Notes: a model not told the origin generated them from the sequence alone. A stretch of DNA of 64,000 nt from Escherichia coli (GCF_003790525.1 NZ_CP033635.1); one strand, 5' to 3'. Counted from the stretch's first letter, positions 47,852-55,927 are shown. Translations and numbers: made by a program.

Positions 47852-47969
47852 TAGGTTTATCTCTTACGGGATTACGTCTTAAACAAGCATGAAAAAATAG
47901 CGTGCGCAAAAGTCGTTCTTTGCCTAAAATATCGCTATATATGACAATATATAGCGAATGAGGTGAACG

Positions 47970-48257
47970 ATGAATAACCATTTTGGTAAAGGCTTAATGG
48001 CGGGATTAAAAGCAACGCATGCCGACAGTGCGGTTAATGTGACAAAATACTGTGCCGATTATAAACGCGGTTTTGTATTAGGCTACTCGCACCGGATGTA
48101 CGAAAAGACCGGAGATCGCCAGCTCAGCGCCTGGGAAGCGGGTATTCTGACGCGCCGCTATGGACTGGATAAAGAGATGGTAATGGATTTCTTTCGTGAG
48201 AATAATTCCTGTTCTACGTTGCGCTTTTTTATGGCCGGTTATCGCCTCGAAAATTGA
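47970..48257 (+). CDS. yghW: DUF2623 family protein YghW
   Basis: 95 aa ORF recognised as YghW. Confidence 0.85.
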
Positions 48258-48445
48258 TCAAACATACGTATTATCTTGCTTTAATTAATTACACTAATGC
48301 TTCTTCCCTTCGTTTTAGCGCCCCGCCGCAGTATCATGATATCGATAACCATAATAAATGTGTGGTAAATGGCGCATCGATCGCATTATTGATTTTGCGA
48401 TTGAGGCAAAATATATGCCAGGTCTTCGCAACGGAATAACTATAA

Positions 48446-49564
48446 ATGACTGGAGATAACACCCTCATCCATTCTCACGGCATTAACCGTCGTGATTTCA
48501 TGAAGCTTTGTGCAGCATTAGCCGCCACCATGGGGTTAAGTAGCAAAGCCGCTGCAGAGATGGCCGAATCGGTTACTAACCCGCAGCGTCCGCCAGTTAT
48601 CTGGATTGGCGCGCAGGAGTGCACCGGTTGTACGGAATCTCTGCTTCGTGCAACGCATCCAACGGTAGAAAACCTCGTGCTGGAGACTATCTCTCTGGAG
48701 TATCACGAAGTGCTTTCCGCCGCCTTCGGTCATCAGGTCGAAGAGAACAAACATAACGCACTTGAGAAGTACAAAGGGCAGTATGTGTTGGTTGTGGATG
48801 GTTCCATCCCATTAAAAGATAACGGTATTTATTGCATGGTTGCTGGTGAGCCGATTGTGGATCACATCCGCAAAGCGGCAGAAGGCGCAGCAGCGATTAT
48901 CGCTATCGGTTCCTGCTCTGCGTGGGGCGGTGTTGCCGCAGCTGGAGTTAACCCAACTGGCGCAGTCAGCCTGCAAGAAGTTCTGCCAGGCAAAACCGTT
49001 ATCAATATTCCGGGCTGCCCGCCGAACCCGCACAACTTCCTCGCGACCGTTGCGCACATCATCACTTACGGCAAACCGCCGAAACTGGATGACAAAAATC
49101 GTCCGACCTTCGCCTATGGCCGTCTGATTCACGAACACTGCGAACGTCGCCCGCACTTCGATGCTGGTCGTTTTGCCAAAGAGTTCGGTGATGAAGGCCA
49201 CCGCGAAGGCTGGTGCCTGTACCACCTCGGCTGTAAAGGGCCAGAAACTTACGGCAACTGCTCAACGCTGCAATTCTGCGATGTTGGCGGTGTGTGGCCG
49301 GTGGCGATTGGTCACCCGTGCTATGGCTGTAACGAAGAAGGTATCGGCTTCCATAAAGGCATCCATCAGCTTGCCAACGTCGAAAACCAGACTCCGCGTT
49401 CACAGAAACCGGATGTTAACGCTAAAGAAGGCGGCAACGTCTCGGCAGGCGCTATTGGTTTGCTCGGCGGTGTGGTTGGGCTGGTTGCCGGTGTCAGCGT
49501 GATGGCGGTTCGTGAACTGGGTCGTCAGCAAAAGAAAGATAACGCTGACTCACGGGGAGAATAA
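48446..49564 (+). CDS. hybO: hydrogenase 2 small subunit
   Basis: 372 aa; Tat signal ([16 protein letters not shown]), [NiFe] hydrogenase small-subunit Cys motifs. Confidence 0.95.
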
Positions 49565-49566
49565 CC

Positions 49567-50553
49567 GTGAACAGACGTAATTTTATTAAAGCAGCCTCCT
49601 GCGGGGCATTGCTGACGGGCGCGCTGCCGTCTGTCAGTCATGCGGCTGCTGAAAACCGCCCGCCAATTCCGGGATCGCTGGGGATGTTGTACGACTCGAC
49701 CTTGTGCGTTGGCTGCCAGGCGTGCGTCACCAAGTGTCAGGATATCAACTTCCCTGAACGTAACCCGCAAGGGGAACAGACCTGGTCGAACAACGACAAA
49801 CTGTCGCCGTACACCAATAACATCATTCAGGTGTGGACCAGCGGCACAGGGGTCAACAAAGACCAGGAGGAGAATGGCTACGCGTACATTAAGAAACAGT
49901 GTATGCATTGCGTCGATCCGAACTGTGTCTCTGTGTGCCCGGTCTCTGCACTAAAAAAAGATCCGAAAACCGGCATTGTCCATTACGACAAAGATGTGTG
50001 CACCGGCTGCCGTTACTGCATGGTCGCCTGCCCATACAATGTGCCGAAGTACGACTACAACAACCCGTTTGGTGCGCTGCATAAGTGCGAGCTGTGCAAC
50101 CAGAAAGGTGTGGAACGTCTCGATAAAGGCGGTCTGCCTGGCTGCGTAGAAGTGTGCCCGGCGGGCGCGGTGATTTTCGGTACGCGTGAAGAGCTGATGG
50201 CGGAGGCGAAAAAACGTCTGGCGCTGAAGCCTGGCAGCGAATACCACTATCCGCGTCAGACGCTGAAATCTGGCGACACTTACCTGCATACGGTGCCGAA
50301 ATATTATCCGCATCTGTACGGCGAGAAAGAGGGCGGCGGTACTCAGGTTCTGGTACTGACGGGTGTGCCTTATGAAAATCTCGACCTGCCGAAACTGGAC
50401 GATCTTTCTACCGGTGCGCGTTCCGAAAATATTCAACACACCCTGTATAAAGGCATGATGCTACCACTGGCTGTGCTGGCGGGCTTAACCGTGCTGGTTC
50501 GTCGCAACACCAAAAACGACCATCACGACGGAGGAGACGATCATGAGTCATGA
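49567..50553 (+). CDS. hybA: hydrogenase 2 iron-sulfur ferredoxin-type subunit
   Basis: 328 aa; Tat signal and multiple CxxCxxC 4Fe-4S motifs. Confidence 0.95.
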
Positions 50554-51721
50554 TCCACAACCGCTGGGCGGCAAAATCATCAGTAAACCGGTCATGATTT
50601 TTGGACCGTTAATCGTCATCTGTATGCTCCTGATTGTGAAGCGTCTGGTGTTCGGTCTGGGCTCAGTCTCTGACCTGAACGGCGGCTTCCCGTGGGGCGT
50701 GTGGATCGCGTTTGACCTGCTGATCGGCACCGGCTTTGCCTGTGGCGGCTGGGCGCTGGCGTGGGCGGTATACGTCTTTAACCGTGGGCAATACCATCCG
50801 CTGGTGCGTCCGGCGCTGTTGGCGAGTCTGTTTGGTTACTCACTGGGTGGCTTGTCGATCACTATTGACGTGGGTCGCTACTGGAACCTGCCGTACTTCT
50901 ACATTCCGGGTCACTTCAACGTGAACTCGGTACTGTTCGAGACGGCGGTCTGTATGACCATCTACATCGGCGTGATGGCACTGGAGTTTGCTCCAGCACT
51001 GTTTGAACGTCTGGGCTGGAAGGTGTCGCTACAGCGTCTGAACAAGGTTATGTTCTTCATCATTGCACTTGGCGCGCTGCTGCCGACCATGCACCAGTCT
51101 TCAATGGGGTCGCTGATGATCTCGGCGGGCTACAAGGTGCATCCGTTGTGGCAGAGCTATGAAATGTTGCCGTTGTTCTCGCTGCTGACGGCGTTCATCA
51201 TGGGCTTCTCGATTGTCATCTTTGAAGGTTCGCTGGTGCAGGCGGGTCTGCGTGGCAACGGTCCGGATGAAAAGAGTCTGTTCGTTAAGCTGACCAACAC
51301 CATCAGTGTGTTGCTGGCGATTTTCATCGTGCTGCGCTTTGGCGAGCTTATCTATCGCGACAAGCTGTCGTTAGCGTTTGCCGGTGACTTCTATTCCGTG
51401 ATGTTCTGGATTGAAGTCCTGCTGATGCTCTTCCCGCTGGTCGTTCTGCGTGTGGCGAAGCTGCGTAATGATTCCCGCATGCTGTTCCTGTCAGCACTGA
51501 GCGCGCTGTTAGGTTGTGCAACCTGGCGTCTGACCTATTCGCTGGTGGCATTCAACCCGGGTGGCGGTTACGCCTACTTCCCGACCTGGGAAGAACTGTT
51601 GATTTCTATTGGTTTTGTGGCTATTGAGATTTGCGCTTACATCGTACTCATTCGTCTACTGCCGATACTTCCTCCTTTAAAACAAAACGATCATAATCGT
51701 CATGAGGCGAGCAAAGCATGA
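50543..51721 (+). CDS. hybB: hydrogenase 2 membrane anchor subunit (NrfD/PsrC-like)
   Basis: 392 aa polytopic ORF overlapping hybA by 11 nt. Confidence 0.95.
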
Positions 51722-53421
51722 GCCAGAGAATTACTATTGATCCGGTAACCCGTATTGAAGGGCATTTACGCATCGATTGCGAAATCGAAAATGGCGTCGT
51801 TTCGAAAGCATGGGCTTCCGGTACCATGTGGCGCGGCATGGAAGAGATCGTGAAAAACCGCGATCCGCGCGATGCATGGATGATTGTGCAACGTATCTGT
51901 GGCGTATGTACTACCACTCACGCGCTGTCTTCCGTTCGTGCGGCAGAAAGTGCACTGAATATCGACGTTCCGGTTAACGCGCAATACATCCGTAACATCA
52001 TTCTGGCTGCGCACACCACGCATGACCATATCGTTCATTTCTATCAGCTCTCGGCGCTGGACTGGGTGGACATCACTTCTGCACTGCAAGCTGACCCAAC
52101 CAAAGCCTCCGAAATGCTGAAAGGTGTTTCGACCTGGCACCTGAACAGCCCGGAAGAGTTCACCAAAGTTCAGAACAAGATTAAAGATCTGGTTGCCAGC
52201 GGTCAGTTGGGGATTTTCGCCAATGGCTACTGGGGTCACCCGGCGATGAAACTGCCGCCAGAAGTGAACCTGATTGCGGTAGCGCACTACCTGCAGGCGC
52301 TGGAGTGCCAGCGTGACGCTAACCGCGTCGTGGCGCTGCTGGGCGGTAAAACGCCACACATTCAGAACCTGGCGGTAGGTGGGGTCGCTAACCCAATCAA
52401 CCTCGACGGTCTGGGCGTGCTGAACCTTGAGCGCCTGATGTACATCAAGTCTTTCATCGATAAACTGAGCGACTTTGTTGAGCAGGTTTATAAGGTTGAT
52501 ACCGCGGTTATCGCCGCGTTCTACCCGGAATGGCTGACGCGCGGTAAAGGTGCGGTGAACTACCTGAGCGTGCCGGAATTCCCGACCGACAGCAAAAACG
52601 GCAGCTTCCTGTTCCCGGGCGGCTACATTGAGAATGCGGATCTGTCCTCGTATCGCCCGATCACTTCCCACTCCGATGAATACCTGATTAAAGGCATTCA
52701 GGAGAGCGCGAAGCACTCCTGGTATAAAGACGAAGCGCCGCAGGCACCGTGGGAAGGTACCACCATTCCGGCTTATGATGGTTGGTCTGACGACGGTAAA
52801 TATTCCTGGGTGAAATCACCGACTTTCTACGGCAAAACGGTAGAAGTGGGTCCGCTGGCTAACATGCTGGTGAAACTGGCGGCAGGACGCGAGTCTACCC
52901 AGAACAAACTGAATGAAATCGTTGCGATTTATCAGAAACTGACTGGCAACACGCTGGAAGTGGCGCAGCTGCACTCCACGCTGGGCCGTATTATTGGTCG
53001 TACCGTTCACTGCTGTGAATTGCAGGATATCCTGCAAAATCAATACAGTGCACTGATCACCAATATCGGCAAAGGCGATCACACCACCTTTGTGAAGCCG
53101 AACATTCCGGCAACGGGTGAGTTCAAAGGCGTAGGTTTCCTCGAAGCACCGCGCGGTATGCTCTCTCACTGGATGGTTATTAAAGACGGTATCATCAGCA
53201 ACTACCAGGCGGTTGTTCCATCAACCTGGAACTCTGGTCCGCGTAACTTCAATGATGACGTCGGTCCTTACGAGCAGTCGCTGGTGGGTACGCCGGTTGC
53301 CGATCCGAATAAACCGCTGGAAGTGGTGCGTACCATTCACTCCTTCGACCCGTGCATGGCCTGTGCGGTACACGTAGTGGATGCTGACGGCAACGAAGTG
53401 GTTTCAGTGAAGGTTCTGTAA
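51718..53421 (+). CDS. hybC: hydrogenase 2 large subunit
   Basis: 567 aa; N-terminal RICGVCTTTH and C-terminal DPCMACAVH nickel-binding motifs. Confidence 0.96.
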   Translation: MSQRITIDPVTRIEGHLRIDCEIENGVVSKAWASGTMWRGMEEIVKNRDPRDAWMIVQRICGVCTTTHALSSVRAAESALNIDVPVNAQYIRNIILAAHTTHDHIVHFYQLSALDWVDITSALQADPTKASEMLKGVSTWHLNSPEEFTKVQNKIKDLVASGQLGIFANGYWGHPAMKLPPEVNLIAVAHYLQALECQRDANRVVALLGGKTPHIQNLAVGGVANPINLDGLGVLNLERLMYIKSFIDKLSDFVEQVYKVDTAVIAAFYPEWLTRGKGAVNYLSVPEFPTDSKNGSFLFPGGYIENADLSSYRPITSHSDEYLIKGIQESAKHSWYKDEAPQAPWEGTTIPAYDGWSDDGKYSWVKSPTFYGKTVEVGPLANMLVKLAAGRESTQNKLNEIVAIYQKLTGNTLEVAQLHSTLGRIIGRTVHCCELQDILQNQYSALITNIGKGDHTTFVKPNIPATGEFKGVGFLEAPRGMLSHWMVIKDGIISNYQAVVPSTWNSGPRNFNDDVGPYEQSLVGTPVADPNKPLEVVRTIHSFDPCMACAVHVVDADGNEVVSVKVL

Positions 53422-53915
53422 TGCGTATTTTAGTCTTAGGGGTCGGCAATATTTTGCTGACCGATGAAGCCATCGGCGTGCGGATTGTCGAAGCGTTAGA
53501 GCAACGATACATTCTGCCGGATTATGTTGAGATCCTCGATGGCGGCACGGCGGGAATGGAGCTGCTTGGCGACATGGCAAATCGCGATCATCTGATTATT
53601 GCGGATGCCATTGTGTCGAAAAAGAACGCGCCGGGAACGATGATGATCCTGCGGGATGAAGAAGTTCCGGCGTTGTTTACCAACAAAATCTCTCCGCATC
53701 AGCTTGGCCTGGCCGACGTATTGTCGGCCCTGCGCTTCACCGGCGAGTTTCCGAAAAAGCTGACCCTGGTCGGCGTGATCCCGGAATCACTGGAGCCACA
53801 CATCGGCTTAACGCCGACGGTCGAAGCGATGATTGAACCTGCGCTTGAGCAGGTTCTGGCTGCGCTGCGCGAATCAGGCGTGGAAGCTATCCCACGGGAG
53901 GCGATTCATGACTGA
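53421..53915 (+). CDS. hybD: hydrogenase 2 maturation endopeptidase
   Basis: 164 aa MRILVLGVGNILLTDEAIG... HybD/HyaD family; start overlaps hybC stop. Confidence 0.93.
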   Translation: MRILVLGVGNILLTDEAIGVRIVEALEQRYILPDYVEILDGGTAGMELLGDMANRDHLIIADAIVSKKNAPGTMMILRDEEVPALFTNKISPHQLGLADVLSALRFTGEFPKKLTLVGVIPESLEPHIGLTPTVEAMIEPALEQVLAALRESGVEAIPREAIHD

Positions 53916-54396
53916 AGAGATAGCAGGTTTCCAGACCTCCCCGAAGGCGCAAGTACAGGCAGCGTTTGAAGAAATTGCCCGGCGTTCGATGCACGATCTC
54001 TCTTTTCTGCATCCTTCAATGCCGGTGTATGTTTCTGACTTTACGCTGTTCGAAGGTCAGTGGACGGGGTGTGTGATCACCCCGTGGATGCTGAGTGCAG
54101 TTATCTTCCCCGGCCCGGATCAACTCTGGCCGCTGCGCAAAGTGAGTGAAAAAATTGGTCTGCAACTGCCGTATGGCACTATGACCTTTACCGTTGGCGA
54201 ACTGGACAGTGTTTCGCAATACCTCTCCTGCTCGCTGATGTCGCCGCTTTCGCACAGCATGTCGATTGAAGAGGGCCAACGGCTGACGGATGACTGCGCC
54301 CGAATGATCCTTTCGCTGCCAGTCACCAATCCGGATGTACCACACGCAGGGCGTCGTGCCCTGCTATTTGGCCGCAGGAGTGGCGAAAATGCATGA
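53908..54396 (+). CDS. hybE: hydrogenase 2-specific chaperone
   Basis: ORF 53833-54396 trimmed to ATG at 53908 (162 aa) overlapping hybD stop by 8 nt. Confidence 0.88.
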   Translation: MTEEIAGFQTSPKAQVQAAFEEIARRSMHDLSFLHPSMPVYVSDFTLFEGQWTGCVITPWMLSAVIFPGPDQLWPLRKVSEKIGLQLPYGTMTFTVGELDSVSQYLSCSLMSPLSHSMSIEEGQRLTDDCARMILSLPVTNPDVPHAGRRALLFGRRSGENA

Positions 54397-54730
54397 GTTG
54401 TCGCTTTGCCAGAGCGCCGTTGAAATTATCCAACGGCAGGCGGAGCAGCACGATGTTAAGCGCGTCACCGCCGTGTGGCTGGAAATTGGTGCGCTCTCCT
54501 GCGTTGAGGAGAGTGCCGTCCGTTTTAGTTTTGAAATTGTCTGCCACGGAACGGTGGCGCAAGGGTGCGATTTACATATCGTCTATAAACCCGCCCAGGC
54601 CTGGTGCTGGGATTGCAGCCAGGTGGTGGAGATTCATCAGCACGATGCGCAGTGTCCGATCTGTCATGGCGAGCGGTTGCGTGTCGATACCGGCGATTCG
54701 CTGATCGTCAAAAGTATTGAAGTTGAATAA
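54389..54730 (+). CDS. hybF: hydrogenase nickel incorporation protein (HypA-like)
   Basis: ORF 54335-54730 trimmed to ATG at 54389 (MHELSLCQSAVEII...), 113 aa with CxxC...CxxC zinc motif. Confidence 0.9.
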   Translation: MHELSLCQSAVEIIQRQAEQHDVKRVTAVWLEIGALSCVEESAVRFSFEIVCHGTVAQGCDLHIVYKPAQAWCWDCSQVVEIHQHDAQCPICHGERLRVDTGDSLIVKSIEVE

Positions 54731-54742
54731 CCGGAGTTAACA

Positions 54743-54991
54743 ATGTGTATTGGCGTTCCAGGCCAGGTGCTGGCTGTCGGTGAAGATATTCACCAGCTTG
54801 CGCAGGTTGAAGTATGTGGTATCAAGCGCGACGTGAATATCGCCCTGATTTGTGAAGGTAACCCTGCCGATCTGCTGGGCCAGTGGGTACTGGTACACGT
54901 CGGATTTGCCATGAGCATTATCGATGAAGACGAAGCCAAAGCCACATTAGACGCACTGCGCCAAATGGATTACGACATTACCAGCGCGTGA
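54743..54991 (+). CDS. hybG: hydrogenase maturation factor (HypC-like)
   Basis: 82 aa; N-terminal MCIGVPGQV with Cys2 characteristic of HypC family. Confidence 0.92.
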
Positions 54992-54999
54992 TGATTAAA

Positions 55000-55033
55000 G
55001 CCGGATGCGGCGTAAATGCTTTATCCGGCTACA
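55000..55033. repeat. REP (repetitive extragenic palindromic) element
   Basis: GCCGGATGCGGCGTAAATGCTTTATCCGGCTACA matches the canonical E. coli REP/PU consensus; between convergent hybG and yghU. Confidence 0.8.
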
Positions 55034-55060
55034 TAGCGATAAGCCTGCCAATGTTGCGAC

Positions 55061-55927
55061 TTACCCCTGACGCTTATCTTCCGTATTCGTCTCGAAATCA
55101 CTGGCGTCATGGCGCTCATGCAACTGCTCGTTCAGCGGCCCGTTGGTGCGGTTAACAATACGCCCACGCTTCACCGCCGGACGTTCGCCCACTTCTTTCG
55201 CCCAGCGTTGTACGTGTTTATAACTTCCCGCATCAAGAAACTCTGCGGCATCATACACGCCGCCTAACACCACGTTGCCAAACCACGGCCAGATCGCCAT
55301 ATCCGCAATGGTGTACTCATCGCCCGCAACAAACTTGTGCTGCGCCAGTTGCTTATCCAGCACGTCGAGCAGGCGCTTGGCTTCCATGGTAAAGCGGTTG
55401 ATGGCGTACTCAATTTTCACCGGCGCGTAATGGTAAAAGTGACCAAAACCACCGCCGAGGAACGGTGCCGCGCCCTGTAACCAGAACAGCCAGTTCAGCG
55501 TTTCAGTCCGTTTTGCCAGATCCTGCGGCAGGAAGTAGCCAAATTTCTCCGCCAGATAAAGCAGAATCGATCCAGACTCAAACACGCGGATCGGTGGATT
55601 ATGGGTATGGTCGCGCAATGCCGGGATCTTCGAGTTTGGGTTCACTTCGACAAAGCCGCTGGAGAATTGATCGCCATCGCCAATACGAATCAGCCAGGCG
55701 TCGTACTCTGCACCAGTAACGCCCAGCGCCAGCAGCTCCTCAAGCATAATCGTTACTTTCTGTCCGTTTGGCGTTCCCAGCGAATAGAGTTGCAGCGGAT
55801 GTTTGCCCACCGGCAGCGTTTTTTCATGCGTCGGACCAGAAACCGGGCGATTGATATTGGCGAACGCGCCGCCAGCGGATTTATCCCACGTCCAGACTTT
55901 CGCGGGCTGATAAGTATTGTCTGTCAT
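55061..55927 (-). CDS. yghU: glutathione S-transferase-like disulfide reductase YghU
   Basis: ORF 55061-55975 trimmed to ATG at 55927 (MTDNTYQPAKVWTWDKSAGG...), 288 aa. Confidence 0.9.
   Translation of the reverse strand: MTDNTYQPAKVWTWDKSAGGAFANINRPVSGPTHEKTLPVGKHPLQLYSLGTPNGQKVTIMLEELLALGVTGAEYDAWLIRIGDGDQFSSGFVEVNPNSKIPALRDHTHNPPIRVFESGSILLYLAEKFGYFLPQDLAKRTETLNWLFWLQGAAPFLGGGFGHFYHYAPVKIEYAINRFTMEAKRLLDVLDKQLAQHKFVAGDEYTIADMAIWPWFGNVVLGGVYDAAEFLDAGSYKHVQRWAKEVGERPAVKRGRIVNRTNGPLNEQLHERHDASDFETNTEDKRQG

Follow-up and report, generated by a model that had tools for sequence, protein, structure and literature searches.

Does the close packing of the hydrogenase-2 genes in Escherichia coli (GCF_003790525.1, NZ_CP033635.1) indicate that their translation is linked, and can it be used to choose between start codons or to predict equal amounts of product? 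A sequence-only reading of the 64,000-nucleotide stretch analysed here (the window) had described tight translational coupling through the hyb genes, had regarded it as expected for stoichiometric assembly and had taken the overlaps to confirm the starts chosen for hybE and hybF. Our results favor a more restricted view, to which we assign a probability of about 70%: this is a standard hybOABCDEFG operon with boundaries as annotated, whose translation would be coordinated by termination-reinitiation at the tight junctions. Such coupling is plausible given the geometry of the junctions, a layout that permits linked translation and does not prove it.

The region is the hybOABCDEFG hydrogenase-2 operon in the RefSeq annotation of NC_010498.1, with eight genes in the standard hyb order, all on the plus strand. 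The first cistron, hybO (48446..49564; 372 aa; ATG to TAA), encodes the small subunit with the Tat signal RRDFMK, and is followed by hybA (49567..50553; 328 aa; GTG to TGA) for the 4x[4Fe-4S] ferredoxin-type subunit, hybB (50543..51721; 392 aa) for the NrfD-type integral membrane subunit, and hybC (51718..53421) for the large subunit, a precursor of 567 aa. These four genes were found both in the open reading frame list and in RefSeq. RefSeq likewise places the maturation endopeptidase gene hybD (53421..53915; 164 aa), the hydrogenase-2 chaperone gene hybE (53908..54396; 162 aa), hybF for the HypA-type nickel metallochaperone (54389..54730; 113 aa; there named hypA), which begins with MHE, and the last cistron, hybG (54743..54991; 82 aa), for a HypC-type chaperone that begins with MC. 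The gene identities given by the sequence-only reading are borne out by RefSeq, by Pfam (Fer4_11 for HybA, NrfD for HybB, HycI for HybD, NiFe-hyd_HybE, HypA, and HupF_HypC, which matches HybG from residue 1) and by PDB matches to the Hyd-2 large chain, HybD and HybE. Twin-arginine motifs can be read off the translations of HybO (INRRDFMK) and HybA (MNRRNFIK). PDB chains of 567 aa and 552 aa begin at residue 1 of HybC, whose residues 2-552 are visible in the crystal (PMC5902676), and 1CFZ and 2KML align with HybD from residue 1.

The window matches E. coli SMS-3-5 at 100% identity, and its identity to 5,418 complete genomes of the species is 95-100%. In E. coli K-12 (b2997-b2990) the genes, their order and all seven junction distances are the same (PMC10666635 supplement), the differences being strain-level substitutions only; HybE has S at residue 101 here and G in the PDB 2KC5 sequence. 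The K-12 transcript is recorded as hybOABCDEFG in the same supplement. A scan for internal promoters and terminators gave counts at or below shuffle expectation, none of them convincing, and Rfam had no match in 47900-55200.

The six distances reported earlier, over a span (49564-54743) bounded by the final base of hybO and the first of hybG, proved exact. Our own extraction and the RefSeq boundaries agree on +2 for O/A, -11 for A/B, -4 for B/C, -1 for C/D, -8 for both D/E and E/F, and +12 for F/G; comparison with annotated hyb operons, which the earlier reading had named as a check, returns the same values from RefSeq and from the published K-12 table (PMC10666635 supplement), in which these distances were already known. 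At the hybO/hybA junction (49562..49569, plus strand), TAA is followed by the 2-nt gap CC and GTG, with the Shine-Dalgarno sequence GGGGAG (49554-49559) within the last codons of hybO. The hybA frame is shut seven codons upstream, and GTG is the sole start that retains the NRRNFIK Tat motif as read from the sequence. All the other junctions lie on the same strand. hybA and hybB share 11 nt, ATGAGTCATGA (50543..50553), preceded by GGAGGAG (50530-50536; -9.5 kcal/mol); hybB and hybC share ATGA (51718..51721), and hybC and hybD share one nucleotide within TAATG (53419..53423), both as extracted here and in RefSeq. The two 8-nt overlaps are ATGACTGA for hybD/hybE (53908..53915), with GGGAGG at 53896-53901 (-10.3 kcal/mol), and ATGCATGA for hybE/hybF (54389..54396), with AGGAG at 54376-54380 (-7.0 kcal/mol). 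The 12-nt spacer between hybF and hybG (54731..54742) contains GGAG (54733-54736). Shine-Dalgarno pairing is -3.5 kcal/mol at hybD and lies between -5.6 and -10.3 kcal/mol at the other internal genes (hybA, B, C, E, F and G), and at the six tight junctions the downstream motif is embedded in the 3' end of the upstream gene. Each internal gene thus has a Shine-Dalgarno motif of its own, with which independent initiation would be possible.

Taken singly, each of these junctions is ordinary. The spacings -4, -1 and -8 are the commonest in E. coli, where spacings from -8 to +6 account for 24% of all unidirectional pairs (PMC10666635). Six of the seven hyb pairs are no more than 2 nt apart, compared with 7 of 35 other same-strand pairs in the window (Fisher p = 0.002), but the p value is only 0.09 against operon-like pairs no more than 30 nt apart. 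Because of this, and because the individual spacings are common, the run of six represents the tight end of normal operon packing and no anomaly.

Nor is the run an accident of this strain, as judged from the conservation of its geometry across genera. We scored 62-77 loci per junction in about 19 genus-level groups of Enterobacterales and Aeromonas, leaving out four frame-broken loci that are probably assembly errors or pseudogenes. The C/D distance is -1 in 77/77 loci, from Escherichia through Aeromonas; B/C is -4 in 67/70; O/A is +2 in 66 and +3 in 4, with a GTG start in 70/70; and A/B overlaps in 70/70, by 8, 11, 14 or 17 nt. E/F is -8 in 56/62 loci, -1 in five and +3 in one. For D/E, 46 loci have -8 and the others fall between -19 and +16; in Aeromonas the start nearest by homology (+14) is a miscall of hybE, whose real ATG lies 11 codons further upstream with a pairing energy of -10.8 kcal/mol, and weighting by Shine-Dalgarno strength gives -19. 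Close relatives have F/G spacers of anywhere from +2 to +30, and Providencia and Serratia-type operons carry an inserted hypB at this position. The loci behind these counts are not phylogenetically independent (Citrobacter contributes 19, for instance, and Aeromonas 13), and the starts in other species were placed by their homology to E. coli proteins, so that conservation of distance partly mirrors conserved protein termini. The layout is best described as real, ordinary, previously published and conserved.

The starts of hybE and hybF bear on two of these distances. The sequence-only reading chose the short starts at 53908 and 54389, and we find this choice to be correct on independent grounds; its argument that the overlaps confirm the trimmed starts is circular, since the 8-nt overlaps were computed from those very starts. 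The alternative is that one or both proteins begin further upstream, at a TTG at 53833 and an ATG at 54335, which would enlarge the overlaps to 83 nt and 62 nt, respectively. Both longer frames are open in the present strain, and most Escherichia, Citrobacter and Salmonella loci keep that of hybE open. However, neither longer start has a Shine-Dalgarno motif, the pairing energies being -10.3 versus -2.8 kcal/mol for the short and long starts of hybE, and -7.0 versus -1.1 kcal/mol for those of hybF. Many genera also carry in-frame stops 0-8 codons upstream of the short starts: for hybE, the frame is shut 1-8 codons before the ATG in E. whittamii, Morganella, Kosakonia and others, and for hybF, stops occur 0-7 codons upstream of MHE in Limnobaculum, Budvicia, Providencia, Kosakonia and Serratia. 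Furthermore, annotated homologs begin at the short Met. The N-termini of HybE homologs align there, PDB 2KC5 is the 162-aa form, and the Pfam HybE profile begins downstream of it. For HybF, position 1 of the Pfam HypA profile is the Met of MHE (profile positions 1-112 are matched), PDB HypA chains align from their own Met1, and the gene begins with MHE in every locus of the cross-genus set in which it is intact. The N-terminus MHELSLCQ and the two CxxC motifs CWDC and CPIC give HybF the nickel and zinc sites of the HypA/HybF family, in which the N-terminal amine of MHE is a nickel ligand (PMC7055735); this site requires a free Met1 amine. We therefore consider the longer starts extremely improbable and reject both candidate extensions: the 25-codon, TTG-initiated one of hybE (53833..53907, plus strand), for lack of a Shine-Dalgarno motif and of a conserved open frame, and the 18-codon, ATG-initiated one of hybF (54335..54388, plus strand), which has no Shine-Dalgarno motif, meets upstream stops elsewhere and would bury the N-terminal nickel site.

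If the junctions work as we propose, the operon would be read as a single mRNA, ribosomes would load efficiently at an open hybO ribosome-binding site, and at each tight junction a ribosome ending the upstream gene would re-initiate at the start a few bases off, with help from the Shine-Dalgarno motif there. Melting of nearby RNA structure by the upstream ribosome may contribute as well, most plausibly at hybO/hybA. All downstream cistrons would then be translated in coordination with hybO, not necessarily in equimolar amounts, with the probable exception of hybG, which lies 12 nt off with its own motif and may initiate largely independently; the +9 to +12 spacing class, into which hybF/hybG falls, is thought to do so (PMC10666635). 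Both coupling mechanisms have been reviewed (PMC12548453). In tested E. coli pairs, reinitiation requires overlaps or very short gaps and is almost gone at about 20 nt (PMC10666635). The hyb genes resemble the known termination-reinitiation pairs (Huber et al. 2019, PMC6728339; PMC10666635) in being co-directional, in having overlaps of -4, -1 and -8 or gaps of a few nucleotides, in carrying the Shine-Dalgarno motif inside the upstream gene and, for O/A, A/B and B/C, in encoding partners of one complex. Five of the six tight junctions (+2, -4, -1, -8 and -8) fall within the distance window of -8 to +10 nt, and A/B at -11 lies just outside. They differ in that C/D, D/E and E/F join maturation factors rather than complex subunits. 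Our literature searches found no experiment on translational coupling within hyb; the one mention of "translational coupling", in PMC9002611, refers to hypD and hybG co-expressed from a plasmid.

It could be argued instead that the packing is compact and functionally uncoupled, the overlaps being by-products of drift, frozen by two conserved protein ends, while each gene initiates independently. This would fit the Shine-Dalgarno motif at every internal start, the drift of the D/E and F/G spacings between genera and the presence of non-stoichiometric maturation factors at three tight junctions, as well as reports of excess HybC and orphan HybA. Moreover, about 70% of E. coli pairs at -8 to +10 are not complex partners (PMC10666635). 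However, C/D, O/A and B/C vary hardly or not at all among lineages whose HybE proteins have diverged to about 50% identity, and the overlap usually survives changes in length (-8, -11, -14 and -17 at A/B; -8, -11, -17 and -19 at D/E). Reinitiation has also been demonstrated for every overlapping native E. coli pair tested (PMC10666635). Predicted accessibility points the same way: the Shine-Dalgarno sequence of hybO is the most accessible of the eight, with a predicted probability of being unpaired of 0.24 (99th percentile of the transcript), whereas the values for the seven internal genes are 0.0001-0.02, 10- to 2000-fold lower. Given this balance, we regard packing without coupling as unlikely.

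Another mechanism that could link translation is RNA unfolding, in which the ribosome finishing hybO would melt a hairpin that sequesters the hybA GUG. We predict such a hairpin, UCACGG/CCGUGA, at 49550..49570 (plus strand); the Shine-Dalgarno motif and the hybO stop lie in its 9-nt loop, and the GUG is part of its 3' arm. Its 70-nt context is stable (-17.4 kcal/mol, z = -4.13, matched by 0/200 shuffles), about 11 of the 19 genus groups reach z <= -2 for the fold, and most genus representatives have the hybA start codon base-paired in their minimum-energy fold. Each of the inner six base pairs is kept in 26-33 of the 33 representatives. In addition, neither the weak GTG start nor a rare CGG codon in the 5' arm varies, and variable residues just before the conserved C-terminal SRGE of HybO hint at constraint at the nucleotide level. 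The predicted element recalls the unfolding-coupled pairs rpmI-rplT and phage MS2 coat-lysis (PMC12548453), in which the downstream start is likewise sequestered. It differs from them in lacking covariation, since the 33 representatives show neither compensatory changes nor covariation measures above those of shuffles, and in not being universal in relatives: in Morganella, Serratia, Pectobacterium and some Aeromonas it is weak or missing. Nor is it recovered by RNAalifold; the local-fold accessibility of the hybA site is unremarkable within the transcript, and the Shine-Dalgarno motif together with the Tat-signal codons of hybA would also account for the conserved bases. Moreover, by an argument set out in PMC12548453, a ribosome terminating at the hybO stop, only 2 nt away, would cover the hybA site itself. 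We thus consider it doubtful that coupling acts chiefly by unfolding, even at hybO/hybA, and we reject unfolding as the general mechanism of the operon, because the other seven of the eight hyb initiation regions fold no better than shuffled sequence, hybO/hybA being the only unusual fold.

The case for the predicted hairpin as a functional element is suggestive only. It would be tempting to view the junction as a conserved RNA switch, a 6-bp hairpin that restricts hybA to ribosomes that have just completed HybO. This idea is speculative and, in our judgment, rather improbable. If it were true, it would explain the invariant GTG and rare CGG from Escherichia to Aeromonas, and HybA, which aggregates when orphaned and then depends on rhomboid clearance, would be made only behind a ribosome fresh from finishing HybO. 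Of all the features considered here, this start-codon hairpin is the only one that could repay experiment.

Coordination, if it occurs, does not amount to matched amounts. The idea of stoichiometric assembly would suit O, A, B and C only, the structural subunits of Hyd-2 (PMC5902676), and does not extend to C/D, D/E and E/F, which join the protease, the chaperone and the nickel chaperone and are marked as not complex partners in the published K-12 table (PMC10666635 supplement). Cytoplasmic HybC has been reported in excess relative to HybO (PMC5902676), and a GlpG quality-control route has been described for orphan HybA; hyb synthesis thus need not be strictly stoichiometric. According to these published reports, the products of the operon do not all belong to one complex in matched amounts. 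Tight spacing should therefore be read with caution: it neither confirms a start codon nor implies equimolar synthesis, the latter because half of the tight hyb junctions link maturation factors and not enzyme subunits. The significance of the locus goes little beyond annotation quality, in that the hyb genes, among them hybE and hybF with their short starts, have the right boundaries in this strain, and it offers a clean natural case of serial short overlaps.

The fused hyb-hyp clusters of Providencia, Serratia and Budvicia provide a related arrangement. Their hybOABCDE junctions have the same geometry as in E. coli, and a hybF-like gene is then followed by genes for a hypB-type GTPase, hypC/hybG and hypD. 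Unlike these clusters, the E. coli hyb operon retains only the hypA-like (hybF) and hypC-like (hybG) genes.

Each hyb gene was extracted and its frame, start and stop were checked, after which the junctions were measured: +2 nt for hybO/hybA (TAA-CC-GTG), −11 nt for hybA/hybB, −4 nt for hybB/hybC (ATGA), −1 nt for hybC/hybD (TAATG), −8 nt for hybD/hybE (ATGACTGA), −8 nt for hybE/hybF (ATGCATGA) and +12 nt for hybF/hybG, negative values being overlaps. The location and the first six distances are exactly those of the sequence-only reading. Because the RefSeq boundaries coincide with ours, as do all seven distances tabulated for E. coli K-12, where the transcript is recorded as hybOABCDEFG (PMC10666635, supplement), this layout is real but already published, and nothing in it is new. 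The ~9 kb around it shares 100% identity with E. coli SMS-3-5 (NC_010498.1), and among the 5,426 complete genomes of E. coli the region has matches of 95-100% identity in 5,418. RefSeq gives the order yghW, hybO, hybA, hybB, hybC, hybD, hybE, "hypA", hybG and then convergent yghU; Pfam domains support the hyb identities, as do PDB entries (Hyd-2 large chain, HybD, HybE) that match the proteins of the window. The gene at 54389-54730, hybF by position, carries the RefSeq/PGAP name hypA ("hydrogenase maturation nickel metallochaperone HypA"), an inconsistent naming that could mislead automated comparisons.

Taken singly, every hyb junction is ordinary: the three commonest spacings in E. coli are −4, −1 and −8, and the range −8 to +6 nt holds 24% of its unidirectional pairs (PMC10666635). 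Pairs at most 2 nt apart make up 6/7 of the hyb junctions vs 7/35 of the other same-strand neighbours in the 64-kb window (Fisher p = 0.002 against all pairs; p = 0.09 against only pairs ≤30 nt apart). The hyb run thus lies at the compact extreme of ordinary operon packing.

The geometry is widely kept among hyb loci of other species, in which the eight genes were mapped by tblastn, stops were taken as the first in-frame stop, and starts were anchored by homology and then chosen anew under a rule weighted by Shine-Dalgarno strength. Across ~19 genus-level groups, hybO/hybA is +2 in 66 and +3 in four of 70 loci, with a GTG start in all; hybA/hybB overlaps in all 70 (−8, −11, −14 or −17); hybB/hybC is −4 in 67 of 70; hybC/hybD is −1 in 77/77; hybD/hybE is −8 in 46 of 77 and otherwise −19 to +16; hybE/hybF is −8 in 56, −1 in five and +3 in one of 62; and hybF/hybG varies from +2 to +30 (58 loci), counts that come from phylogenetically non-independent loci and to which conserved protein ends contribute, the starts being anchored on E. 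coli proteins. Frame-broken hyb genes led to the exclusion of four loci (L007, L036, L037 and L066: Citrobacter amalonaticus AUH_CA_2023_1, Morganella psychrotolerans DI-3, Trabulsiella odontotermitis 01 and Enterobacter sp. EA-1); these breaks are probably assembly errors or pseudogenes. In Escherichia sp. E1V33 (locus L005, ~2700-2840) the hybF/hybG spacer is 133 nt vs 12 nt, pointing to a small insertion that separates both genes.

The overlaps had also been held to confirm the trimmed starts of hybE and hybF, an argument that is circular because overlap lengths derive from the starts chosen. The short starts themselves are nevertheless correct on other grounds. Shine-Dalgarno pairing is −10.3 kcal/mol for hybE at 53908 vs −2.8 at TTG 53833, and −7.0 for hybF at 54389 vs −1.1 at ATG 54335. 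In the long hybF frame the MHE methionine is residue 19, and it is matched by position 1 of the Pfam HypA profile; alignment with solved HypA homologs begins at their own Met1. HypA-family proteins have a conserved MHE motif whose His2 and N-terminal amine are Ni(II) ligands, and one residue inserted after Met1 alters the nickel site (PMC7055735); an 18-residue extension of HybF would be incompatible with such a site. HybE homologs of Citrobacter, Salmonella, Providencia and Kosakonia start at the same alignment column as short HybE, and PDB 2KC5 is the 162-aa form, weak evidence alone since both follow annotation. The decisive test is frame closure across species (80 loci, one genome per species). 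There, every intact hybF starts with MHE, which an in-frame stop precedes by 0-7 codons in Limnobaculum, Budvicia, Providencia, Kosakonia and Serratia; the short hybE start is preceded by such a stop at one codon in Escherichia whittamii and at 4-8 codons in Morganella, Pseudocitrobacter, Kosakonia and others. Separately, a protein cluster from Logan assemblies (P0004, 273 aa, 101 member sequences) is an in-frame HybE-HybF fusion, in which one A is lost from the GAAAATG run at the 8-nt overlap (cf. 54383-54396), joining ...GRRSGE to MHELS.... The nickel site at the HybF N-terminus would be buried in this product, which may be a natural variant or may stem from an error in sequencing or assembly.

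Tight translational coupling, as proposed from the sequence, is plausible; on the basis of geometry and analogy we put its probability at about 0.7. Two models are current, in which a terminating ribosome reinitiates or an upstream ribosome unfolds inhibitory RNA structure (reviewed in PMC12548453). Reinitiation at native E. coli pairs declines sharply as the distance grows, with almost none left at ~20 nt (PMC10666635); the range −8 to +10 holds 5/6 hyb junctions, hybA/hybB lying just outside, and every internal start has a Shine-Dalgarno motif within the upstream gene. As regards unfolding, hybO/hybA alone among the eight initiation regions folds better than shuffled sequence. Local folding gives the hybO Shine-Dalgarno region a high predicted accessibility (P = 0.24; 99th percentile within the transcript) and the internal ones a 10- to 2000-fold lower one, which fits a model in which ribosomes would load at hybO and downstream cistrons would depend on upstream translation.

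The further idea that coupling serves stoichiometric assembly applies by half. The structural genes are hybOABC only, with the holoenzyme modelled as [HybOCAB]2 (PMC5902676), whereas the other products are a protease (HybD), a chaperone (HybE), a nickel chaperone (HybF) and a HypC-type chaperone (HybG), and hybC/hybD, hybD/hybE and hybE/hybF are marked as not complex partners in K-12 (PMC10666635, supplement). Complexes are 4.5-fold enriched among close E. coli pairs, ~70% of which are not complex subunits (PMC10666635). Moreover, cytoplasmic HybC is reported in excess over HybO (PMC5902676) and the rhomboid protease GlpG recognises and removes orphan HybA (PMC7232013), so that more than translation must set the balance. 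Coupling would co-ordinate expression with hybO, which describes it better than a role in fixing equimolar output.

The hybO/hybA fold (−17.4 kcal/mol, z = −4.13, matched by 0/200 shuffles) contains a predicted hairpin at 49550-49570 (+), whose stem UCACGG/CCGUGA pairs the hybA GUG start with the last codons of hybO and whose loop contains the Shine-Dalgarno motif and the hybO stop. The GTG start (49567-49569) is found in 70/70 loci scored, from Escherichia to Aeromonas, and the rare CGG arginine codon facing it is likewise invariant. Of 33 representatives, 26-33 keep the inner stem, but solely by conservation and G·U wobbles; compensatory changes are absent and shuffles are not exceeded. Because it has neither covariation nor recovery by RNAalifold, and the fold has no exceptional stability in Morganella, Serratia, Pectobacterium and some Aeromonas, we treat this predicted hairpin as a lead rather than a finding.

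Downstream, ~1 kb interrupts the hybF/hybG interval in Providencia, Budvicia, Limnobaculum, Leminorella and Serratia. In the Providencia and Serratia representatives checked, a HypB-type GTPase gene follows the hybF-like gene, then hypC/hybG and hypD, so that the hyb and hyp operons are fused (L051 8900-11353; L067 8848-11139); in Budvicia, Limnobaculum and Leminorella the same place holds an insert of about this size. E. coli hybF and hybG look like a remnant or duplicate of such an arrangement.

The stretch that separates the stop of hybG from that of convergent yghU gave no canonical terminator in a simple scan; it holds a REP-like palindrome (GCCGGATGCGGCGTAAATGCTTTATCCGGC) at 55000-55029. 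A terminator-like 10-bp stem with a weak T tract (GCGCTCTCCTGCGTTGAGGAGAGTGC) lies inside hybF at 54491-54516, and the terminator count overall in the region equals shuffle expectation. Two genes nearby are further cases of a longest ORF that differs from the annotated gene, both ORFs beginning at a GTG upstream of the RefSeq start: yghU (55061-55975, −; 304 aa vs 288 aa in RefSeq) and gss (56129-57991, +; 620 aa vs 619 aa).
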